A stretch of 64,000 nt of DNA, from NCBI GenBank assembly GCA_964629685.1, contig CAZVTT010000002.1, positions 51,468 through 115,467 of the forward strand. The letters are read 5' to 3'. Source of the stretch: an uncultured Gammaproteobacteria bacterium (lineage in GTDB: Bacteria > Patescibacteriota > Microgenomatia > UBA10105 > UBA927). The position numbers and the translations under genes are program-made. The number at the start of each line of letters is the position of its first letter. The stretch's first letter is position 1. The notes under the pieces are model-generated. The model searched no databases, had not been told where the DNA came from, and saw only the letters and a program-made list of their open reading frames with translations. This document shows, in pieces, positions 2,856-13,567 of the stretch.

Positions 2856-3350
2856 ATGGCAGGTGCTCTAAAACAAGAACTGGTGCAGATTATAAACCCA
2901 GATGCCAAAAATTTTATCTTCGGTCAATCGCATTTCATAAAAACGGTAGAGGATCTTCATGAAACGTTAGTTTCATCCGTTCCCGCAATAAAATTCGGTG
3001 TAGCTTTTTGCGAGGCTTCCGGACCACGGTTAATCCGAAAAACCGGAACCAGTGCGGAAATGATGGAATTGGCGGTGAAGAACGCCCGGGCAGTCGGTTG
3101 TGGCCACACGTTCTTTGTGTTTTTGGATAATGCTTTTCCCATAAATGTGGTAAATGGAATTAAAGCCGTTCCGGAAGTTGTGCGTCTTTTTTGCGCGACG
3201 GCAAACCCCGCACAAGTAGTCGTAGCCGAGTCGGATCAGGGACGGGGAGTACTTGGTGTTATAGATGGTGCTTCACCTCTCGGAGTTGAGGATAAAGCAG
3301 GAGAACAGGCAAGGAAGGATTTTTTACGGACCATCGGATACAAACTGTAA
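2856..3350 (+). CDS. small conserved protein resembling the adenosine-specific kinase family (PF04008-like)
   Basis: 164 aa; perfect RBS aaggagg; GQSHFIKTVEDLHE...GCGHTFFVFLDNAFPINVVNGIKAVPEV pattern recalled from PF04008. The family assignment is from memory and not verified. Confidence 0.5.
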   Translation: MAGALKQELVQIINPDAKNFIFGQSHFIKTVEDLHETLVSSVPAIKFGVAFCEASGPRLIRKTGTSAEMMELAVKNARAVGCGHTFFVFLDNAFPINVVNGIKAVPEVVRLFCATANPAQVVVAESDQGRGVLGVIDGASPLGVEDKAGEQARKDFLRTIGYKL

Positions 3351-3368
3351 CAGGGACAAGAAAACGTC

Positions 3369-3776
3369 ATGGTAAAAGATACGTCGTGCGTTTTTTGTAA
3401 GATTGTCGCGGGGGCTGCACCTGCGCATATTGTCTACGAGGATGCTTTCACTATCGCTTTTTTGGATAAATATCCACGGACAAGAGGCCACCTGCAATTA
3501 GTGCCGAAACAGCATTATCGTTGGATCTATGAGCTTCCGGATATGGGAGCGTTCTTCACTACCTCGCAACGGATTATCCGTGGTATAATACCGGTATTAA
3601 GAGCGGATCATGTTACGCTCTCGAGTTTCGGACACGAAGTTACACACGCGCATCTGTGGATAGTCCCGCAGTACGCCGAACGGGTGACGGTATCCGAAAG
3701 ATCGAGGCAAAGTAACGGTTCCGATCAAGAGCAAATAGCGCAAATTCTGCGAAATGAATTTTTAAAGGGGGTGTAG
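3369..3776 (+). CDS. HIT-family (histidine triad) nucleotide hydrolase/transferase
   Basis: Histidine triad HEVTHAHLWIVPQ (HxHxHxx); N-terminal CxxC. Confidence 0.85.
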   Translation: MVKDTSCVFCKIVAGAAPAHIVYEDAFTIAFLDKYPRTRGHLQLVPKQHYRWIYELPDMGAFFTTSQRIIRGIIPVLRADHVTLSSFGHEVTHAHLWIVPQYAERVTVSERSRQSNGSDQEQIAQILRNEFLKGV

Positions 3777-3785
3777 TTTTACTGT

Positions 3786-3974
3786 ATGGTGGTTGTAAAA
3801 GCACAACCGGGCGATTCTTCCGATGCATTAATCCGGAAGTTTACTCGGAAAGTATTATCTGAAGGAATATTACAGGACTTGAAAAAGAAAGAGTTTTATC
3901 AGAAACCAGCTGAAGTTCGAAAAGAAAAACGACGTGAACTTGAGCGACGTTTGCGGCATCCGAATCGACCGTAA
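3786..3974 (+). CDS. rpsU: 30S ribosomal protein S21
   Basis: 62 aa; KFTRKVLSEGILQDLKKKEFYQKPAEVRKEKRR is typical of S21. Confidence 0.85.
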   Translation: MVVVKAQPGDSSDALIRKFTRKVLSEGILQDLKKKEFYQKPAEVRKEKRRELERRLRHPNRP

Positions 3975-3991
3975 AGTTTGTCGGAATTTTT

Positions 3992-4441
3992 ATGCTGATG
4001 ACTCAATTGCGAAAAGATTTAACTGATTCCATGAAACAGGGGAATGCTGTTGCTGTGGAAACCATCAGATTTCTCATATCGGCAATCAAAAATGCTGCCA
4101 TTACGAAATACGGAGCTACGGGTGAATCGGCACTCACTGATGCTGACGTCCTCGAATCCGTAAAAAAGCAGGTTAAAAGCCATCGGGAATCCATTGATGC
4201 GTTTGGTCGTGCGGGACGGAAGGACCTGGTTGAGAAGGAATCGGCACAGCTTGCTGTTTTGGAGCATTATATGCCGAAACAGTTATCTGATGATGAGTTA
4301 AAACAAATAGTCGCACCGATTGTTGCCGGCGGAGAAACAAATTTCGGTTTGCTCATGAAGGCGGCTAAGGAAGCCGCAGGTGATGGTGCCGATGGCGGTC
4401 GGATATCAACGATGATCCGGTCCCTCATGCAACCGAAGTAA
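3992..4441 (+). CDS. GatB/YqeY domain protein
   Basis: 149 aa; alpha-helical, YqeY-like (AVETIRFLISAIKNAAI..., DDELKQIV). Confidence 0.75.
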   Translation: MLMTQLRKDLTDSMKQGNAVAVETIRFLISAIKNAAITKYGATGESALTDADVLESVKKQVKSHRESIDAFGRAGRKDLVEKESAQLAVLEHYMPKQLSDDELKQIVAPIVAGGETNFGLLMKAAKEAAGDGADGGRISTMIRSLMQPK

Positions 4442-4478
4442 ATACAAAGTTATTCTGTCCGATAGCTAAACGATTACA

Positions 4479-4901
4479 TTGTCCGTTAGCAGTTTACCCA
4501 TGACTACTATTTCCGTTCTCTTTCAAACAGAATCACATTTCCCGGTTCCTACCAAAGTGGTAAAGGAAGCCGTTACGGCAGCTTTGGAAAAACGGGTAAA
4601 AGGAAACGTGGAAGTCAGCGTTACGATAGTGGGTGATCGACGAATGAAAGATCTTAATTCAAGTTACCGGAAAATAGAAGATACTACCGATGTGCTTTCG
4701 TTTCCCCAAAATGATCCGTCTCAGAAAGCTTACCCCTTTGTGAATCCTCCGGATAATACCCTGTATTTGGGAGACATCGTCGTTTCTTATCCGCAGGCAG
4801 TCCTGGAAGCTGCGCATGAAAACAAAATGGTCGATGCCAAAATAGTTGAACTTGTGCTGCATGGTTTGGATCACCTTTTGGGGATACATCATCCCGAATA
4901 G
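4479..4901 (+). CDS. ybeY: rRNA maturation endoribonuclease YbeY
   Basis: Metal-binding HGLDHLLGIHH motif (HxxxHxxGxxH); VLSFPQNDP. Confidence 0.85.
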   Translation: MSVSSLPMTTISVLFQTESHFPVPTKVVKEAVTAALEKRVKGNVEVSVTIVGDRRMKDLNSSYRKIEDTTDVLSFPQNDPSQKAYPFVNPPDNTLYLGDIVVSYPQAVLEAAHENKMVDAKIVELVLHGLDHLLGIHHPE

Positions 4902-4964
4902 TACCGGTGTTTTTTCGGAATAGGGGGTTTTCCTTTTTTCCGAATTCCTTCTATACTGTACTCC

Positions 4965-6419
4965 ATGTCCTTCTATAGAAAATACCGGCCCCGTGTGTTC
5001 GCGGAATTGGATAACGCGTCGGTCCGCGATACATTACATTCTTTTCTGAAAAAAGAAAAAACGGAATTGCCCCATGCTTTTTTATTCTGCGGAACCCGGG
5101 GGACAGGAAAAACCACTGCTGCGCGGTTAATTGCAAAGTTATTTACCTGTGAAAATCCCAAAAAAAGCGGAGAGCCCTGCGGCGCATGTGAAGCCTGCGT
5201 GGGTATTGCCGACGGTAACTATATAGACGTATTGGAAATAGATGCAGCCAGTAATACCGGAGTAGATAATATTCGGGATTTACGGGATAAAATAATGCTG
5301 TCTCCCAGTCGCGGGAAGTGGAAGGTATATATTATCGATGAGGTGCACATGTTATCGACAGGCGCCTTTAATGCGTTGTTGAAAACACTGGAAGAACCTC
5401 CCGGTCACGCCGTATTTATACTCGCAACTACCGACCAACATAAGGTTCCCGCTACGATTCAGTCTCGCTGTATGACTCTGGTGTTTAAGCGGCCGACGCT
5501 GGCAGAAATTTCCGGTGTGCTTAACAGGATTTCTGCTTCAGAAAAAATAGATATAACGCCGGAGGCAGTAGATTTGATTGCCAATATTGCCGATGGGTCA
5601 TTTCGGGACGCAGTGAAATTGCTTGAGCAGGTAGGATTGTCAGCCAACACGGTAACACGAACGGAAGTGGAAAACGTGTTGTCCATGAGCAACGCGGATA
5701 CTATCGTACAGTTTACGGATGCGGTATTAAAACGACAGGCAAAACAGGCATTAACACTACTGAATACTGCGGTAACGGAAGGAAAAGATTGTAAATCATT
5801 TTTAACTCAGGTACTGGCAGGGTTAGAGCAAAGACTTACCGCGCAGGTTACGGGCTCAGCCGCAACAGGTTGGGTCCTCACGGATTTAACTGATGTTATC
5901 AGAAAATTATCCCTTGCCTACGGGGAAATGAGATATACGTCTATTCCGCAGCTACCCATAGAAATAGCCGTTGTAGAATTCTGTGAAGCCGGTGCAGTGA
6001 GTAAACCGAAAGCAGTACCACCGGTATTGCCGCCGCAAAAACCGGCACCGGTTCCGTCCGCACCAGTTGCACATGCCGTTCCTGCGGCAAAATCATCCGT
6101 TCCCGCGCCGACGGTTCGGGAAGCAGTACCGGAAGTGGAAATTGCCCCTATCTCTACCGGATTGATTACGTTGGAAAAACTGCAGGAATACTGGAAGGAA
6201 ATAATAGACGCCATGAAAACGGTAAATCACTCCGCGGCCGGAATGCTCCGGTCTACTAGACCAAAAGCGGTAGCAAATGGTATAGTTACCATCGAAGCGT
6301 TTTACACGTTCCATCAGGAGCGATTGTCAGATTCAAAGGTAAAGGACGGTTTGGCAGGCACGCTTAAAAAATTGTTTGGTGAACCCGTAAAAGTGGAAGT
6401 TGTGCTCGGCAAAAAATAA
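4965..6419 (+). CDS. dnaX: DNA polymerase III subunit gamma/tau
   Basis: Walker A GTRGTGKTTAARLIAK; CGACEAC zinc module; IIDEVHML; Pro/Ala-rich linker. Confidence 0.9.
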   Translation: MSFYRKYRPRVFAELDNASVRDTLHSFLKKEKTELPHAFLFCGTRGTGKTTAARLIAKLFTCENPKKSGEPCGACEACVGIADGNYIDVLEIDAASNTGVDNIRDLRDKIMLSPSRGKWKVYIIDEVHMLSTGAFNALLKTLEEPPGHAVFILATTDQHKVPATIQSRCMTLVFKRPTLAEISGVLNRISASEKIDITPEAVDLIANIADGSFRDAVKLLEQVGLSANTVTRTEVENVLSMSNADTIVQFTDAVLKRQAKQALTLLNTAVTEGKDCKSFLTQVLAGLEQRLTAQVTGSAATGWVLTDLTDVIRKLSLAYGEMRYTSIPQLPIEIAVVEFCEAGAVSKPKAVPPVLPPQKPAPVPSAPVAHAVPAAKSSVPAPTVREAVPEVEIAPISTGLITLEKLQEYWKEIIDAMKTVNHSAAGMLRSTRPKAVANGIVTIEAFYTFHQERLSDSKVKDGLAGTLKKLFGEPVKVEVVLGKK

Positions 6420-6437: not shown

Positions 6438-6704
6438 ATGCAAAACCCATTTAAAGCTTTAGGAGACCTAAATTCTATGCGAAAACAAGCCCAACAGATT
6501 CAGGCGGCGCTTGAACAACAGGAGTTTGAGGTTATGGAAGGCAACGTAAAGTTGGTAATTACCGGAAACCAAAATGTAAAATCAGTAGAAATTGACGGAG
6601 TTCCTGCCGAAAACGTGAAACGGGCTTTTAATAACGCGATTAAAAAATCCCAACAGGCGGCAGCCATGAAACTTGCCGAAATGAGTAAAGGGATGGGAAT
6701 GTAA
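6438..6704 (+). CDS. ybaB: nucleoid-associated protein YbaB/EbfC
   Basis: Follows dnaX as in the canonical dnaX-ybaB arrangement; RBS aaaggag then ATG at 6438. The track's TTG at 6420 was rejected. Confidence 0.8.
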   Translation: MQNPFKALGDLNSMRKQAQQIQAALEQQEFEVMEGNVKLVITGNQNVKSVEIDGVPAENVKRAFNNAIKKSQQAAAMKLAEMSKGMGM

Positions 6705-7651
6705 TGAATCAACGTGTTATTGTTACCGGGACAATTGCTTACGATTATATTATGGATTTTACCGGCAAGTTTGCTGACCGGATAATGCCGGAAAAAATTC
6801 ATAAGCTGTCGTTATCTTTCCTGGTCGATCATCTCTCCCGGCAATTCGGCGGTACAGCGGGTAACATTGCATATTCACTGAAATTGCTGGGTATCGATCC
6901 GCTTATTGTGTCACCTGCAGGGAATGATTTCCCCCTATACGAAGCACACTTAAAGAAACAGAAAATTTCGGCTAAGTATATATCCGTGCATAAGGACGTA
7001 TCTATGGGTTCGTATTTTGTGATCACTGATCAGGATGATAATCAAATCGGTGCTTTCTACGCCGGCGGAGCCAAATACGCGGCCAAACTCAATCTCTCGG
7101 CAGTAAAAGAAAAAGTCGGATTTATCGTAGTGGCACCCACGGATGCGAAGGCGATGATATCGTATGCCCGGCAGGCTGCAAAAATGAATATCCCATATTT
7201 ATTTGATCCTGCGTTCCAGATTGCGGATTTCCCTTTGGAAGAACTTCGGGAGGGGATTACCCGTGCGCAGATACTCATCGGGAATGATTATGAAATAGCG
7301 TTAATAGAACAACGACTGGAAGTTAGTCATGAGGAATTACGGACAATGGTTCCGCTCGTCATTACGACACTGGCGGGAAAAGGATCAATTATAGAAACCC
7401 GTTATGAAAGTGTGCATTGTGCTGTTGCCCGGCCTGACAACACCAGTGATCCTACCGGAGCAGGCGATGCCTTCCGGGCTGGTTTTTTAGCAGGGTATTT
7501 ACGGAGCTACGATCTGAAAGTATGCGGACAAATGGGTTCTACTGCTGCGGTATATACGGTAGAAAAATACGGAACGCAAACACATACATTTACCCCCGCA
7601 GCGTTTATGAAACGCTACACGGAAAACTTCGGTACTGCCGTAAAACTGTAA
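6704..7651 (+). CDS. PfkB-family carbohydrate/nucleoside kinase (ribokinase-like)
   Basis: Start overlaps the ybaB stop (taATGa); GGTAGNIAY (GG motif); C-terminal DPTGAGDAFRAGF anion-hole motif. Confidence 0.8.
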   Translation: MNQRVIVTGTIAYDYIMDFTGKFADRIMPEKIHKLSLSFLVDHLSRQFGGTAGNIAYSLKLLGIDPLIVSPAGNDFPLYEAHLKKQKISAKYISVHKDVSMGSYFVITDQDDNQIGAFYAGGAKYAAKLNLSAVKEKVGFIVVAPTDAKAMISYARQAAKMNIPYLFDPAFQIADFPLEELREGITRAQILIGNDYEIALIEQRLEVSHEELRTMVPLVITTLAGKGSIIETRYESVHCAVARPDNTSDPTGAGDAFRAGFLAGYLRSYDLKVCGQMGSTAAVYTVEKYGTQTHTFTPAAFMKRYTENFGTAVKL

Positions 7652-7686
7652 ATATCTGCACGTGTTGAGCCGAATATATTTCACTA

Positions 7687-7715
7687 TTGACACAGATTGT
7701 AATATGCATTACATT
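7687..7715 (+). promoter_or_regulatory. sigma70-like promoter candidate TTGACA-N17-TACATT
   Basis: Seen directly: ttgaca 7687-7692, 17-nt spacer, tacatt 7710-7715; embedded in a partial palindrome (tgtaatatgcattaca). Confidence 0.3.
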
Positions 7716-7913
7716 TTGACTGTGTTCGTACATTAACACGTGAAGATAAAGAAAAGACTACAGTGTTCCGACAAGGATATAAGTGTATCTTTGTGGGAGC
7801 ACTGTAAAGGAATAAAACATCCGAAAGGAGAAAAGGCACCGAATAGGGCCTTGCTTCCGCATCCAGCCGTTTTGGTGAAGATGTGAACGAAAACGTATTT
7901 GTGAGGAGGTTTC

Positions 7914-8063
7914 ATGATGTTGTACCAAGGTCTGAGGCAGAGTTGTCGCACCGTCCACCGCCGTCGCCGTGAAGAAGGTCGTTTCAACACCATCTGGCGC
8001 GAGCAGTCATCCGGTCACGATCATCAGCCGAACACCCCCGAAGCGCACGCCGCCACCAGCTAG
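7914..8063 (+). CDS. candidate 49-aa Arg-rich small ORF (MMLYQGLRQSCRTVHRRRREEGRFNTIW...) in a GC-rich structured segment; may instead be part of an ncRNA
   Basis: Strong RBS gtgaGGAGGtttcATG. Codon usage is GC-rich, unlike neighbouring genes, so coding status is doubtful. Confidence 0.2.
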   Translation: MMLYQGLRQSCRTVHRRRREEGRFNTIWREQSSGHDHQPNTPEAHAATS

Positions 8064-8140
8064 GCAGACGAGCCGACCAGCAAGGTTGCGTGCAGTACAC
8101 ATGTCGTAGGTGAGCCGAGAGGTTCGCCCCCACAAGTACA

Positions 8141-8207
8141 TCGTAGGATGGAAGGGAATCGGCCCAGGCTGATTCCCGACCTACGTTTCCGTAGCTATTC
8201 TTTTTTG
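8141..8207 (+). terminator. Nested hairpins plus T-run (Rho-independent terminator-like)
   Basis: Outer stem cgtagg...cctacg encloses gggaatc-ggcccaggct-gattccc; then ctacg-tttc-cgtag followed by ctattctttttt. Confidence 0.4.
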
Positions 8208-8517
8208 ATTCATCCTTTTATTCACTTTTTTCTTTTTCCTTTACCGCTTTCGCTTAACGACATTACTCCGGAAATACGCAGTATTTTCGGACCCATATCG
8301 TTAAGCGCAGGCAGATGTCGAACACAAATCCGCTATCCGAAAATGCATCGGTAACAGCGGATTTTTTTGTGGCACTAAGCGGGTCAGCGATGGAACCATT
8401 CCCGTTATCTGGGCTCATCCGTTCTGGCAGAAATACGTCACACCTCGGGATACGCAGGGTAGAGAACCGAGCATACTTACGCGGCTGTTTCAATTGTGCT
8501 AGCATAAATACTTGCAT

Positions 8518-9210
8518 ATGAAACGACCATTAGTGCTCTTCGATATTGACGGTACGTTAATTAAAAGCGGTGATAAGAAGTTACGCAAACGGTTTGATCA
8601 TGCGTTTAAATCCGTGTACGGCGTTGATCATCAGGTTAGATGGGATATGCACGAAGGCGCCATAGACCGACAGCTGTTTTTGGAAGAGATGCTGTTCTGT
8701 GGTGTCGCGGAGTCCGTTATTCTCGAACGATTGGATGTCGCCTACGAGGCGGCATTTATCTACTTTCACGAACATGTAGACCGGAAGGAATATGCTGCAT
8801 ACGAGTTACCCCATGCACGGGCTTTACTGGAGACACTCTGGGAACAAACGCATATGGGCGTTCTTACCGGTAATTACGTAAAGTTGGGATGGCTGAAGTT
8901 GGAAATTTTGAATATGAAGCAATTTTTCCCCTTCGGTTTATTCGGAAACGAAGCAGGAAAACGAACTGAGCTTGCCGCGCAGGCCCTGCCACGGGCAAAA
9001 AATCATTTTGGCGTAGAATTTATTCCGCGGGATATCATTATAATCGGAGATACCACCCGTGATATCGACTGTGCCAGGGCGATAGGCGCCAGGGTGATCG
9101 CTACCGCTACCGGAAGAATTCCCTATACGGATTTGGTGAACGCTAAACCCGATTTGGCGGTACACGATCTATCCGACGACAGAATTATTCCGTTTATTCT
9201 TCAATCCTGA
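8518..9210 (+). CDS. HAD-superfamily hydrolase
   Basis: Motif I LFDIDGTL; IIIGDTTRD motif IV. Confidence 0.8.
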   Translation: MKRPLVLFDIDGTLIKSGDKKLRKRFDHAFKSVYGVDHQVRWDMHEGAIDRQLFLEEMLFCGVAESVILERLDVAYEAAFIYFHEHVDRKEYAAYELPHARALLETLWEQTHMGVLTGNYVKLGWLKLEILNMKQFFPFGLFGNEAGKRTELAAQALPRAKNHFGVEFIPRDIIIIGDTTRDIDCARAIGARVIATATGRIPYTDLVNAKPDLAVHDLSDDRIIPFILQS

Positions 9211-9300
9211 TCTGCCGTGTACGTCAGGGGTAGTCACACCAACCACAGAACGAGCATAAGCCGGAGTTTTCTCGTCACTCTTCCTAATACGGTAATATGA

Positions 9301-12173: not shown

Positions 12174-12962
12174 ATGAACGAACCAGCCTTTATTCAACTC
12201 GTGGCCGATTACGGTGTGGGTGATCCGGCGTTCGGGGAAGTAATTCAGAAATTACAACTGTTAGCACCCGGTGTGCGCGTGCATCCGACCAGTGTGCCGG
12301 CTTTCAGCACCCTGTCCACCGGCTTCTGGACATATCAGTATGCCATGGTGAATGCGTTGCCCGGCATGGGGATATACACAAATACCGCGCCCCGCAAAGA
12401 CAGGAAGGAATCCCGGGAAAACAACGAAGGCGAACGGTTAGTTTACGCAAAACTGAAAAACGGTGTCCAAATTATCGGGGTAAACGCAGGGTATTGTTTT
12501 TCCTTTGTAAAACCATTCATTGCAGAATTTGTCGCGGTTAATGTAGCCAATAAAGGATCACAGTTTCGTTCCCGGGATTTTTATCCGGAAGCGGTGATCG
12601 GCATATTACGGGGAGATGCTCAATTTCATGGAAATAGTATGCCGTTAGCTGCTATTCCGGACGTCCCCCAAAATAAAATTGCCTGGATAGACGGTTATGG
12701 CAATATAAAAACTTCCGTACGCCGATCGGCTTTGTCTTTGGAAGTGGGCAAACCATTAACGATAACGTTAAACGGTATGAAGCGGACAGCGTTTTTTTCC
12801 GATGGAACTTTTGCCGTCAGGGAGGGCGAACTGGCATTTTCTCCCGGTTCATCCGGAGGCGATGATAAATTTATGGAAATATTTCTCCGGGGTTTATCGG
12901 CCTGGAAGGAATTCGGTAAACCGCATGTGGAAGATGAGTTTTCGGTTGGGGTGACAACCTGA
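12174..12962 (+). CDS. DUF62-family SAM hydroxide adenosyltransferase-like protein (SAM hydrolase / fluorinase-chlorinase fold)
   Basis: N-terminal ADYGVGDPAFGEVIQKL resembles TDFGxxDxYVGxMKGVI. C-terminal WIDGYGNIKT...FSPGSSGG...FMEIFLRG matches the DUF62 C-domain pattern. Sits 1.5 kb from ahcY. Confidence 0.6.
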   Translation: MNEPAFIQLVADYGVGDPAFGEVIQKLQLLAPGVRVHPTSVPAFSTLSTGFWTYQYAMVNALPGMGIYTNTAPRKDRKESRENNEGERLVYAKLKNGVQIIGVNAGYCFSFVKPFIAEFVAVNVANKGSQFRSRDFYPEAVIGILRGDAQFHGNSMPLAAIPDVPQNKIAWIDGYGNIKTSVRRSALSLEVGKPLTITLNGMKRTAFFSDGTFAVREGELAFSPGSSGGDDKFMEIFLRGLSAWKEFGKPHVEDEFSVGVTT

Positions 12963-13567
12963 TGGAACGGTTTCTCCGTCGTCCGTTGGATTTTTTCAGT
13001 GCACCATACCGTCGTCAGCGTATCCTCTATAAACTTCATCATGAGCATAACTCTAGTGATGTATTGTCCGCTATCCGCGATATTAAGACTCCGGACGATT
13101 TATTATATGTGAACACCGTACTGAATGAGGAATTGTCCCGCCGGAAAAACGAAAAACCTAAAAGTATCCATATTGAGATTCCGCCGGAACCGGTAGAGCC
13201 ATCGATAACGGATATCCGGCTGAATCTGTACGGTATTAATTCTCCCGGGTGGCAGCACTCCGTAGATGTTTTGCTGGTACATGCGCTGTTATCGAAAGAC
13301 AGGTTTAACCTGTCGGCCTTGTCCGGTATAGAACATGATTTTACTCCCTGGCAGCAGGGGTTACTTACGTCGTTGTGTTACTGGTACGGTTCATCCTGGC
13401 ACAGACAAACCTGGTTACCGGACATGACGAACGGTATGTATGCTGCCATGGAAACGGAAAGTGCGCGTTCGGAATATACTACTGCGCTGTCTGATTTTTC
13501 GGTTCCGTACCGGGTGGGAAATGAAGGAATTGTGTTTGAATATTACTTCGGTGAGGTACACGAATAG
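12962..13567 (+). CDS. hypothetical protein
   Basis: 201-aa ORF; its start overlaps the upstream stop (ATGA). Confidence 0.5.
   Translation: MERFLRRPLDFFSAPYRRQRILYKLHHEHNSSDVLSAIRDIKTPDDLLYVNTVLNEELSRRKNEKPKSIHIEIPPEPVEPSITDIRLNLYGINSPGWQHSVDVLLVHALLSKDRFNLSALSGIEHDFTPWQQGLLTSLCYWYGSSWHRQTWLPDMTNGMYAAMETESARSEYTTALSDFSVPYRVGNEGIVFEYYFGEVHE

Follow-up and report, generated by a model that had tools for sequence, protein, structure and literature searches.

A probable structured RNA gene of about 650 nt, with an embedded mini-ORF, between the pfkB and HAD genes of a Patescibacteria-type genome

What occupies an 860-nt gap between two genes when no protein of ordinary length is encoded within it? 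This question is raised by positions 7652-8511 of a 64,000-nt stretch of contig CAZVTT010000002.1 (called the window here), which lie between a pfkB kinase gene (6704-7651) and a HAD gene (8512-9210). Other genes of the window include dnaX, ybaB, and the gene for adenosylhomocysteinase (SAHH), a gene content of the type seen in the candidate phyla radiation (CPR, or Patescibacteria). The nearest named relatives of the kinase, at 62-64% identity, carry the annotations Candidatus Gottesmanbacteria, Microgenomates or Patescibacteria. An initial annotation reported that the gap has no open reading frame (ORF) of more than 90 residues and that it includes a stretch of about 60% G+C. Indeed, the longest ORF in the gap has 86 residues, and the G+C content measured at about 7925-8149 is 0.61-0.64 versus about 0.41-0.50 in the flanking genes. 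As set out below, the gap very probably holds a single, independently transcribed gene for a structured RNA of about 650 nt, a member of an uncatalogued family. With a good deal less assurance, we lean toward regarding it as a new structured, dual-function RNA, that is, a stand-alone gene with a translated mini-ORF and a riboregulator role.

The extent of the gene is defined by its relatives, which were reached through the kinase, through the ORF product, and through a metagenome scan for a pattern consisting of the linker and the terminator. The scan returned 17 loci (loci are given L numbers here), of which 7 are real and mostly duplicates; L143 and a partial copy, L150, were new. There are eight other distinct copies: seven that are complete or nearly so (L001, L156, L004, L143, L005, L129, and L008) and one deletion derivative, also in L008. 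nhmmer matches the homologues end to end, with E-values of 1e-50 to 1e-149, and the length of the RNA ranges from 540 to 690 nt. The copies fall into two subfamilies, A and B, with an overall identity of only about 45% between them. Subfamily A consists of the window, L156/L157 (about 88% identical, on a partial contig), and L001/L002 (61%), and subfamily B of L004, L143, L005, L129, and L008, whose mutual identity is 67-81% and which include the L008 mini copy. All copies come from groundwater-type metagenomes, with sources such as ERZ978523, JGI 3300027835, SRR34831215, and ERZ28613422; the genome of L129 is GCA_040960095.1. Conservation spans the interval from the TTGACA of the promoter to a terminator, AAAUCCGCU...AGCGGAUUUUUUU, that is identical in every copy, and because conservation ends at this shared terminator, the 3' end of the RNA was set at 8368. 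Thus, the region marked in the initial annotation is real, but it covers only about three quarters of the unit, which has 170 nt more, to 8368.

At the upstream end, TTGACA-N17-TACATT at 7687 had already been proposed as a promoter, and it matches the consensus at 10 of 12 positions. The promoter is credible not because of this single match (one promoter-like site was found in the region and 1.8 are expected by chance) but because its position is kept in every homologue; alignments of L001 and of all the B-type copies place TTGACA and a -10 element at the equivalent site. The spacing from this promoter puts the inferred start of transcription at about 7722. At the downstream end, the initial annotation had assigned termination to a hairpin plus T6 at about 8200. 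This assignment fails: the stem has only 5 bp, the U-run is 6 nt away, and both conservation and structure run on to 8326-8368. The hairpin at 8181-8207 is at best a weak or partial terminator, and its U-run opens a long pyrimidine region, the 3' part of which (8226-8244) pairs with a purine tract near the 5' end. The terminator sequence is not diagnostic of the RNA family, because it is generic across unrelated bacteria. The pattern AAATCCGCT-N(15-35)-AGCGGATTTTT is present in no fewer than 119 unrelated genomes from many phyla (loci L010-L128), and the RNA element is absent from all of these reference-genome loci. At the level of sequence, then, the RNA has a promoter and a terminator of its own, as expected of a dual-function small RNA; both are conserved in all copies, and the downstream gene varies.

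When each copy is folded singly, the same architecture emerges: helices P1, P2, and P3, a branched and G+C-rich central domain, a 3' hairpin domain, and the terminator (Table 1). Relative to shuffled sequences, the minimum free energy (MFE) fold of the full 7722-8368 interval has a z of -8.8 on the plus strand and -6.0 on the minus strand; for 7716-8210, z is -5.3. Assignment to the plus strand follows from the promoter, the U-run of the terminator, and the many G-U pairs. P1 is predicted in 8 of 8 copies folded alone and pairs the extreme 5' end with the bases just before the terminator, so that the two ends of the RNA would be clamped together. P2 is kept in all copies with differing sequences (in the mini copy, for example, the pair is GAUAAAAGA / UCUUUUUUAUC). 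The segment that follows P3 is not conserved between the subfamilies. In the hairpin at 8109-8128, the changes found in L156 preserve pairing (U-G to C-G and G-C to G-U). The nested stems drawn in the initial annotation are indeed present at 8142-8185, where CGTAGG (8142-8147) with CCTACG (8180-8185) encloses GGGAATC (8154-8160) with GATTCCC (8171-8177). This stem-loop is the positional equivalent of the B-type GGUGGAAGUCU/AGACUUCCACC stem, and in L001 the equivalent stem has changed bases, UUCGUUC/GAGCGAA around GGGGGUCAGCC/GGUUGGCUCCC. The inner stem of the 3' hairpin domain varies in sequence and length across copies.

Covariation supports the predicted fold. In a 7-sequence alignment, RNAalifold identifies 92 pairs, 30 of them compensatory. 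At these pairs 89.4% of the cells are paired, compared with 43-47% after a shift of the partners by 1-3 columns. Both sides are changed in 31 pairs, versus 6-11 after such a shift and 13.7±2.9 in shuffles (0 of 500 reach 31). P3 contributes heavily, with 15 of its 25 pairs changed on both sides and 93% of cells paired. MAFFT misaligned the A-type and B-type hairpins of the 5' domain; the 3' domain and the outer portion of P1 were also out of register between A and B, and for these two the alignment was curated by hand. In the curated register, 88% of P1 cells are paired and 5 of 15 columns are compensatory between subfamilies; for the outer stem of the 3' domain, the paired cells amount to 99%, and both sides are changed in 5 of 15 columns. 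The conservation in relatives and the covariation on which the initial annotation had made a functional RNA depend are thus both found, and its reading of the region as a structured noncoding RNA holds; the predicted helices are kept through compensatory changes.

Table 1. Features of the RNA gene, in positions of the window
Feature	Position	Strand	Description
Whole RNA gene	7722-8368	+	About 647 nt; nhmmer matches homologues end to end
σ70-type promoter	-35 7687-7692; -10 7710-7715	+	TTGACA, 17-nt spacer, TACATT; consensus scan, 10/12 matches
P1, 5' arm	7722-7733	+	GUGUUCG-U-ACAU; pairs with 8315-8325
P2, 5' purine-rich arm	7740-7757	+	GUGAAGAUAAAGAAAAGA; pairs with 8226-8244
P3	7759-7806	+	22-bp hairpin (11 + 10 bp, AAGU loop); covariation
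Initiation region with Shine-Dalgarno GAGGAGG (7903-7909)	7895-7909	+	Predicted pairing with C-rich 8128-8139 (MFE)
Mini-ORF, 49 aa	7914-8063	+	ATG at 7914; ends at conserved CAGCTAG
Conserved motif CGUGAAGAAGGU	7968-7979	+	Reads R-E-E-G in the ORF frame
8-bp hairpin with GNRA tetraloop (GAGA)	8109-8128	+	Loop is GUAA in L156 and L001
Nested stem-loop	8142-8185	+	CGUAGG/CCUACG around GGGAAUCGGC/GCUGAUUCCC; strong, just before pyrimidine tract
Small 5-bp hairpin and U-run	8181-8194, U-run to 8207	+	Tail CTATTCTTTT; U-run begins 6 nt after stem
P2, 3' pyrimidine-rich arm	8226-8244	+	UUUUUUCUUUUUCCUUUAC; single-sequence folds
3' hairpin domain (unit B)	8246-8312	+	Outer stem GCUU-U-CGCUUAACGA with UCGUUAAGCG-C-AGGC; inner hairpin 8268-8290
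P1, 3' arm	8315-8325	+	AUGU-CGAACAC; directly abuts terminator
Intrinsic terminator	8326-8368	+	AAAUCCGCU..AGCGGAUUU stem, inner CCG/CGG, then U7; stem invariant in all copies

Embedded in this fold is a short ORF. The initial annotation had pointed to a GAGGAGG ribosome-binding site feeding a 49-residue frame, and both are in place: a Shine-Dalgarno (SD) sequence at 7903-7909 and the ORF at 7914-8063. The ATG at 7917, which gives 48 residues, is the likelier start, because 7914 reads AAG in L156. A purine run resembling an SD sequence lies 5-8 nt ahead of an AUG in 7 of 7 full-length copies, and gene callers have predicted the mini-ORF in public data. The A-type peptides are MMLYQGLRQSCRTVHRRRREEGRFN... 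(window, 49 aa), a 51-aa product in L156, and MFNCQCEGSPPCCNRRHREEGRQ... (L001, 44 aa), and those of the B-type are MRVVQCREEGRCRRS... (L143, 33 aa), MRGFNEREEG (L005), MRALEREEG (L129), and MRIFEREEG (L008). The A-type copies contain a run of Arg codons, four in succession in the window ORF, and the B-type ORFs lack such a run. What these peptides have in common is the motif CGUGAAGAAGG, read as R-E-E-G and in frame behind the SD-AUG in 6 of 7 full-length copies; its sole variation, CGC GAG in L129, is synonymous. No conserved pairing partner was found for the motif, and thus a helix does not explain its conservation. The frame is preserved in other ways as well. Between the window and L156 there are three indels within the ORF, each of 3 nt, whereas the six outside it are of 1, 1, 3, 1, 1, and 1 nt (Fisher estimate, p ~0.05). 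The ORF frame is the only one open in all three A-type copies, which end at a shared stop, CAGCTAG, and the same stop codon is present in L143. The initial annotation had doubted a true coding function. This doubt stands in that amino acid conservation is weak and substitutions by codon position are 7/5/3; it does not stand in that the frame, the stop, and R-E-E-G (6 of 7) are kept and the indels within the ORF are each 3 nt long. The mini-ORF is thus probably translated, its start, frame, and R-E-E-G core being maintained while length and sequence drift. A frame that is kept when the sequence is not would fit a situation in which translation matters more than its product.

Other candidate proteins from the gap were rejected. 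No protein similarity is shared by the minus-strand ORFs, which have 86 aa in the window and, as called, 92 aa in L001, and indels break their frames; six-frame translation of the gap gives no ORF with a Pfam match. P0123, a protein of 533 aa built of tandem repeats of about 53 aa each, matches residues 17-47 of the mini-ORF product nine times, with an identity of about 45% (TI.R.QS..H.HQP..P). This is probably a chance match inflated by the repeats.

The predicted folds also bear on access to the start site. Besides the pairing of the SD region given in Table 1, the MFE fold of the window pairs the first codons with 8097-8109. L001 can form an equivalent SD pairing with changed bases, CUAUGUGGAGG : CCGCCACAUAG, and its first codons pair UGUUC with GAACA where the window pairs UGUAC with GUACA. 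The SD of the B-type copies instead falls within a local hairpin whose other strand is a CCUU(U) segment farther upstream. Ribosome access in the A-type copies may thus be limited, on the weak indication of these models, by pairing of the SD and start with sequences 3' of the ORF.

Farther downstream, CUACG at 8181-8185 has two possible partners, CGUAG at 8142-8146 and CGUAG at 8190-8194, and because the arms overlap, the outer nested stem and the hairpin at 8181-8194 are mutually exclusive. L001 has the same exclusive arrangement with different bases (UUCGUUC / GAGCGAA / UUUGC). The alternative pairing within 8142-8194 may act as a switch of conformation, conserved between the two, by which a shorter isoform with its end near 8207 is produced.

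Variants of the RNA are seen in individual copies. L129 has an insertion of about 100 nt (12880-12985) in the 3' hairpin domain, which forms a long extra hairpin and marks a site of variable-length expansion, as in many structured RNAs. B-type copies (L004 at about 7955-7990, L143, L005, and L129) contain an invariant, AT-rich, perfect palindrome, TACAATATTATTGTA, before the pyrimidine tract. It is absent from A-type copies, and a scan of L004 flagged a promoter-like site there (TTTAAA-17-TATTAT); the palindrome could serve as an operator, or as a promoter within the RNA gene that drives the 3' hairpin domain. The mini copy of L008, at 8977-9270 and also present in L009 and L144, lies 1.2 kb upstream of the full copy, with paralogous Tricorn-N/PD40 beta-propeller genes on either side. 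Everything between the P3 loop and the loop of the GGUGGAAGUCU stem is deleted from it, and hence it has no ORF. It retains its own TTGACA promoter, P1, the 3' hairpin domain, and the terminator, together with a P2 whose sequence differs.

Judging from the copies found, the family looks rare and narrow, with members in a Microgenomates-like clade of the CPR. In the flanks around pfkB (up to 10 kb on each side, as far as the contigs extend), the RNA was not found in L007, L131-136, L154, or L155, and several relatives have the kinase directly before adenosylhomocysteinase with no copy in the flanks covered. The pfkB-SAHH interval is itself variable (L004, L005, L007, L008, L129, L131-136, L154, and L155). 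It is empty in some relatives, and elsewhere its contents are beta-propeller genes, GNAT, dCMP deaminase, HAD, a minus-strand gene of 88-107 aa, or the RNA. Directly downstream of the RNA are a HAD gene (window and L001), a GNAT gene (L129), or the convergent minus-strand gene (L004, L005, and L008). The last of these was considered as a partner, but it is not an obligate one, because it is absent from the window and from L129. A consensus scan found no promoter-like site in 8369-8511, between the RNA terminator and the HAD start; the window HAD gene may be expressed by read-through or from a promoter that the scan does not recognise. In L001 a promoter-like site directly follows the RNA terminator. 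Blastn against phages and plasmids and searches of viral contigs with patterns gave no match to the RNA element. Elsewhere in the window, the 3350-4965 gap upstream of dnaX holds small genes of 135, 62, 149, and 140 aa and nothing unusual; the 62-, 149-, and 140-aa genes match S21, YqeY, and YbeY in size and syntenic position.

Does the RNA belong to a known family? The initial annotation, which had called for a scan with Rfam covariance models, could not confidently match the region by eye to transfer-messenger RNA (tmRNA), RNase P RNA, signal recognition particle (SRP) RNA, or 6S RNA, and the searches agree. Rfam 15, at gathering thresholds, gives no hit in the whole window, the models for OLE, ROOL, GOLLD, HEARO, and raiA included. 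At E<=10, the region (7600-8560) and four homologous loci (L001, L143, L004, and L005) yield nothing above the level of chance (mir-6, sRNA-Xcc1, Phe_leader, Sphinx, and others), and ARAGORN finds no tRNA or tmRNA in the window. tmRNA has a tRNA-like domain, with acceptor stem, T-arm, and CCA, and a tag frame without SD or AUG, whereas the ORF here has both; neither ARAGORN nor Rfam (RF00023 and relatives) reports one. RNase P RNA (RF00010, RF00011, and RF00373), which is marked by conserved P4 strands, is likewise without a hit at E<=10, and the segment after P3 is not conserved between A and B. 6S RNA is a single irregular helix of about 180 nt with a central bubble, and SRP RNA carries the domain IV motif; the present RNA is multibranched and 540-690 nt long, and no Rfam model of these types (RF00013, RF00169 and its clan) finds it. 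Closer in kind are the large RNAs OLE, ROOL, GOLLD, HEARO, and raiA, which share with it a length of 500-800 nt, a covarying multi-domain fold, GNRA loops, a patchy or narrow range, and discovery by comparative genomics. Their hosts and gene neighbourhoods differ, no Rfam model matches, and to our knowledge none of them carries a conserved SD-AUG ORF.

A number of observations weigh against a translated, dual-function RNA, and several of these would favour instead a purely noncoding, structural RNA in which the SD-like run, the AUG, and R-E-E-G are RNA-level elements and the open frame is incidental to the G+C-rich segment. The 7/5/3 distribution of substitutions lacks third-position bias, and the ORF diverges faster than its surroundings (10.2% vs 3.8% in the 5' flank). 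Its length spans a five-fold range, from 9 to 51 codons, which counts against a functional peptide. The L004 peptide (MRVFNSSS...) has lost R-E-E-G, and the mini copy dispenses with the ORF while keeping the elements listed above. The 3-nt indels hold every frame open, the ORF frame included; G+C-rich DNA yields long chance frames on both strands; and the SD region is itself one strand of a predicted long-range helix. Occlusion of the SD is partial, since ensemble calculations leave 0.2-0.56 of it unpaired, and the A-type and B-type copies use different partners for it. As to the fold, P2 is weaker evidence of low information, because purine and pyrimidine tracts pair easily. The only 8 full or nearly full sequences form two clades, so that one deep contrast, A versus B, accounts for much of the covariation, and the shuffle control that gave 13.7±2.9 takes no account of the relatedness of the sequences. 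No target, partner protein, or consistently linked gene was found, and the transcript, its ends, and translation of the ORF are all read from DNA sequence. A purely noncoding RNA nevertheless leaves much unaccounted for: SD-AUG spacing is kept in 7 of 7 full-length copies across about 45% identity, R-E-E-G is in frame in 6 of 7 without a conserved pairing partner, the indels within the ORF are all multiples of 3 when 5 of 6 outside are not, and the stop codon is common to the A-type copies and L143. This explanation is thus unlikely, but it deserves to be taken seriously.

The remaining explanations are less probable. An mRNA for a small protein, gated like those of the type I toxins hok (plasmid R1) and aapA1 (Helicobacter pylori) so that the full-length transcript is inert until processed, would account for the short ORF, for the covarying helix P1 that closes the 5' and 3' ends in 8 of 8 copies, and for an initiation region paired with sequences 3' of the ORF. 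Closing of the ends and a sequestered start are hallmarks of hok-family and aapA1 mRNAs, reportedly from work of the Gerdes and Darfeuille laboratories. It is an improbable explanation here: the peptides are hydrophilic and Arg/Glu-rich, or only 9-10 aa long, with no hydrophobic, membrane-like helix and no Pfam hits; a crude consensus scan of the window, L004, L001, and L129 found no conserved antisense promoter; the RNA is single-copy in the window; its 540-690 nt far exceed what gating needs; and what follows P1 directly is an intact terminator, not a processed 3' tail. Even the four Arg codons, the alternative partners of CUACG ahead of a terminator, the lack of a separate HAD promoter in 8369-8511, and weak look-alikes of the Rfam Phe_leader (16 and 27 bits, far short of the threshold of 55) do little for a cis-acting leader, also entertained in the initial annotation, in which an Arg-rich leader peptide would govern read-through into HAD-SAHH. 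The gene downstream differs between copies or is convergent, so the RNA is not a cis-leader of this kind; every copy ends in a strong terminator, L001 has its post-terminator promoter-like site, the B-type ORFs have no codon run, and the RNA is 3-4 times longer than known attenuators. An attenuator is therefore quite improbable. Very improbable is a mobile or relic DNA element with no RNA function, be it a decaying pseudogene or a miniature inverted-repeat transposable element whose inverted repeats mimic P1. P1 is an inverted repeat in DNA, the locus lies in a variable interval, and L008 has a second, internally deleted copy; against this, the promoter and terminator lie outside the repeats and were both duplicated with the mini copy, internal helices covary as a DNA element would not need, the 64-kb window has one copy, and there are no phage, plasmid, or viral-contig matches and no protein-family hit for the six-frame ORFs. 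There is equally little to commend a universal RNA (RNase P RNA, tmRNA, 6S, or SRP) too divergent for covariance models. CPR genomes are divergent, the order P1-P2-P3 is reminiscent of the 5' part of RNase P RNA, and the hairpin between the 3' arms of P2 and P1 is reminiscent of the tmRNA T-arm; the searches described above, the lack of P4 consensus strands, the excessive length, the SD-AUG ORF, and the failure to find the RNA in the pfkB flanks of several relatives all speak against it.

The preferred reading, a dual-function RNA, has its nearest functional analogues in Staphylococcus aureus RNAIII, Bacillus subtilis SR1/SR1P, and SgrS/SgrT. Like these, the RNA has its own promoter and terminator hairpin, and it would extend over several hundred nucleotides, with many stem-loops, long-range helices joining the ends, and an embedded short ORF whose SD is accessible depending on the fold. 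The likeness is one of function only, as there is no similarity in sequence or to covariance models, the present ORF shows poor conservation and a minimum length of 9 codons, and the host belongs to the CPR and not to the Firmicutes. By such analogies, the RNA would act as a stable riboregulator or dual-function RNA in the manner of RNAIII or SR1. In A-type copies, pairing of the SD and start with sequences 3' of the ORF would limit ribosome access, and translation of the mini-ORF, rather than the peptide, would remodel the central domain. The RNAIII and hok/aapA1 analogies thus lead to a tentative proposal, a stable riboregulator in which ribosome access and the central domain would be coupled.

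CPR bacteria account for a large fraction of bacterial diversity, and their genomes are tiny. Next to nothing is known of their regulatory RNAs, and literature searches returned no description of such an RNA in them. Large structured RNAs are rare in bacteria, and those such as OLE, ROOL, and GOLLD have proved structurally remarkable. A conserved RNA of 650 nt amounts to about 0.06% of a 1-Mb genome, and it is therefore unlikely to be idle. It is conceivable, though speculative, that the family represents a class of large, ornate RNAs specific to the CPR/Patescibacteria, with a ribosome-engaging mini-ORF whose translation to R-E-E-G or to the stop switches the conformation; this would be a ribosome-sensing riboregulator without counterpart in the catalogued families. 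A large RNA with a frame-conserved mini-ORF within its fold would be a compact system for the coupling of translation and folding, and the present locus shows G+C-rich islands in the intergenic gaps of AT-leaning CPR genomes to be a productive hunting ground for RNAs.

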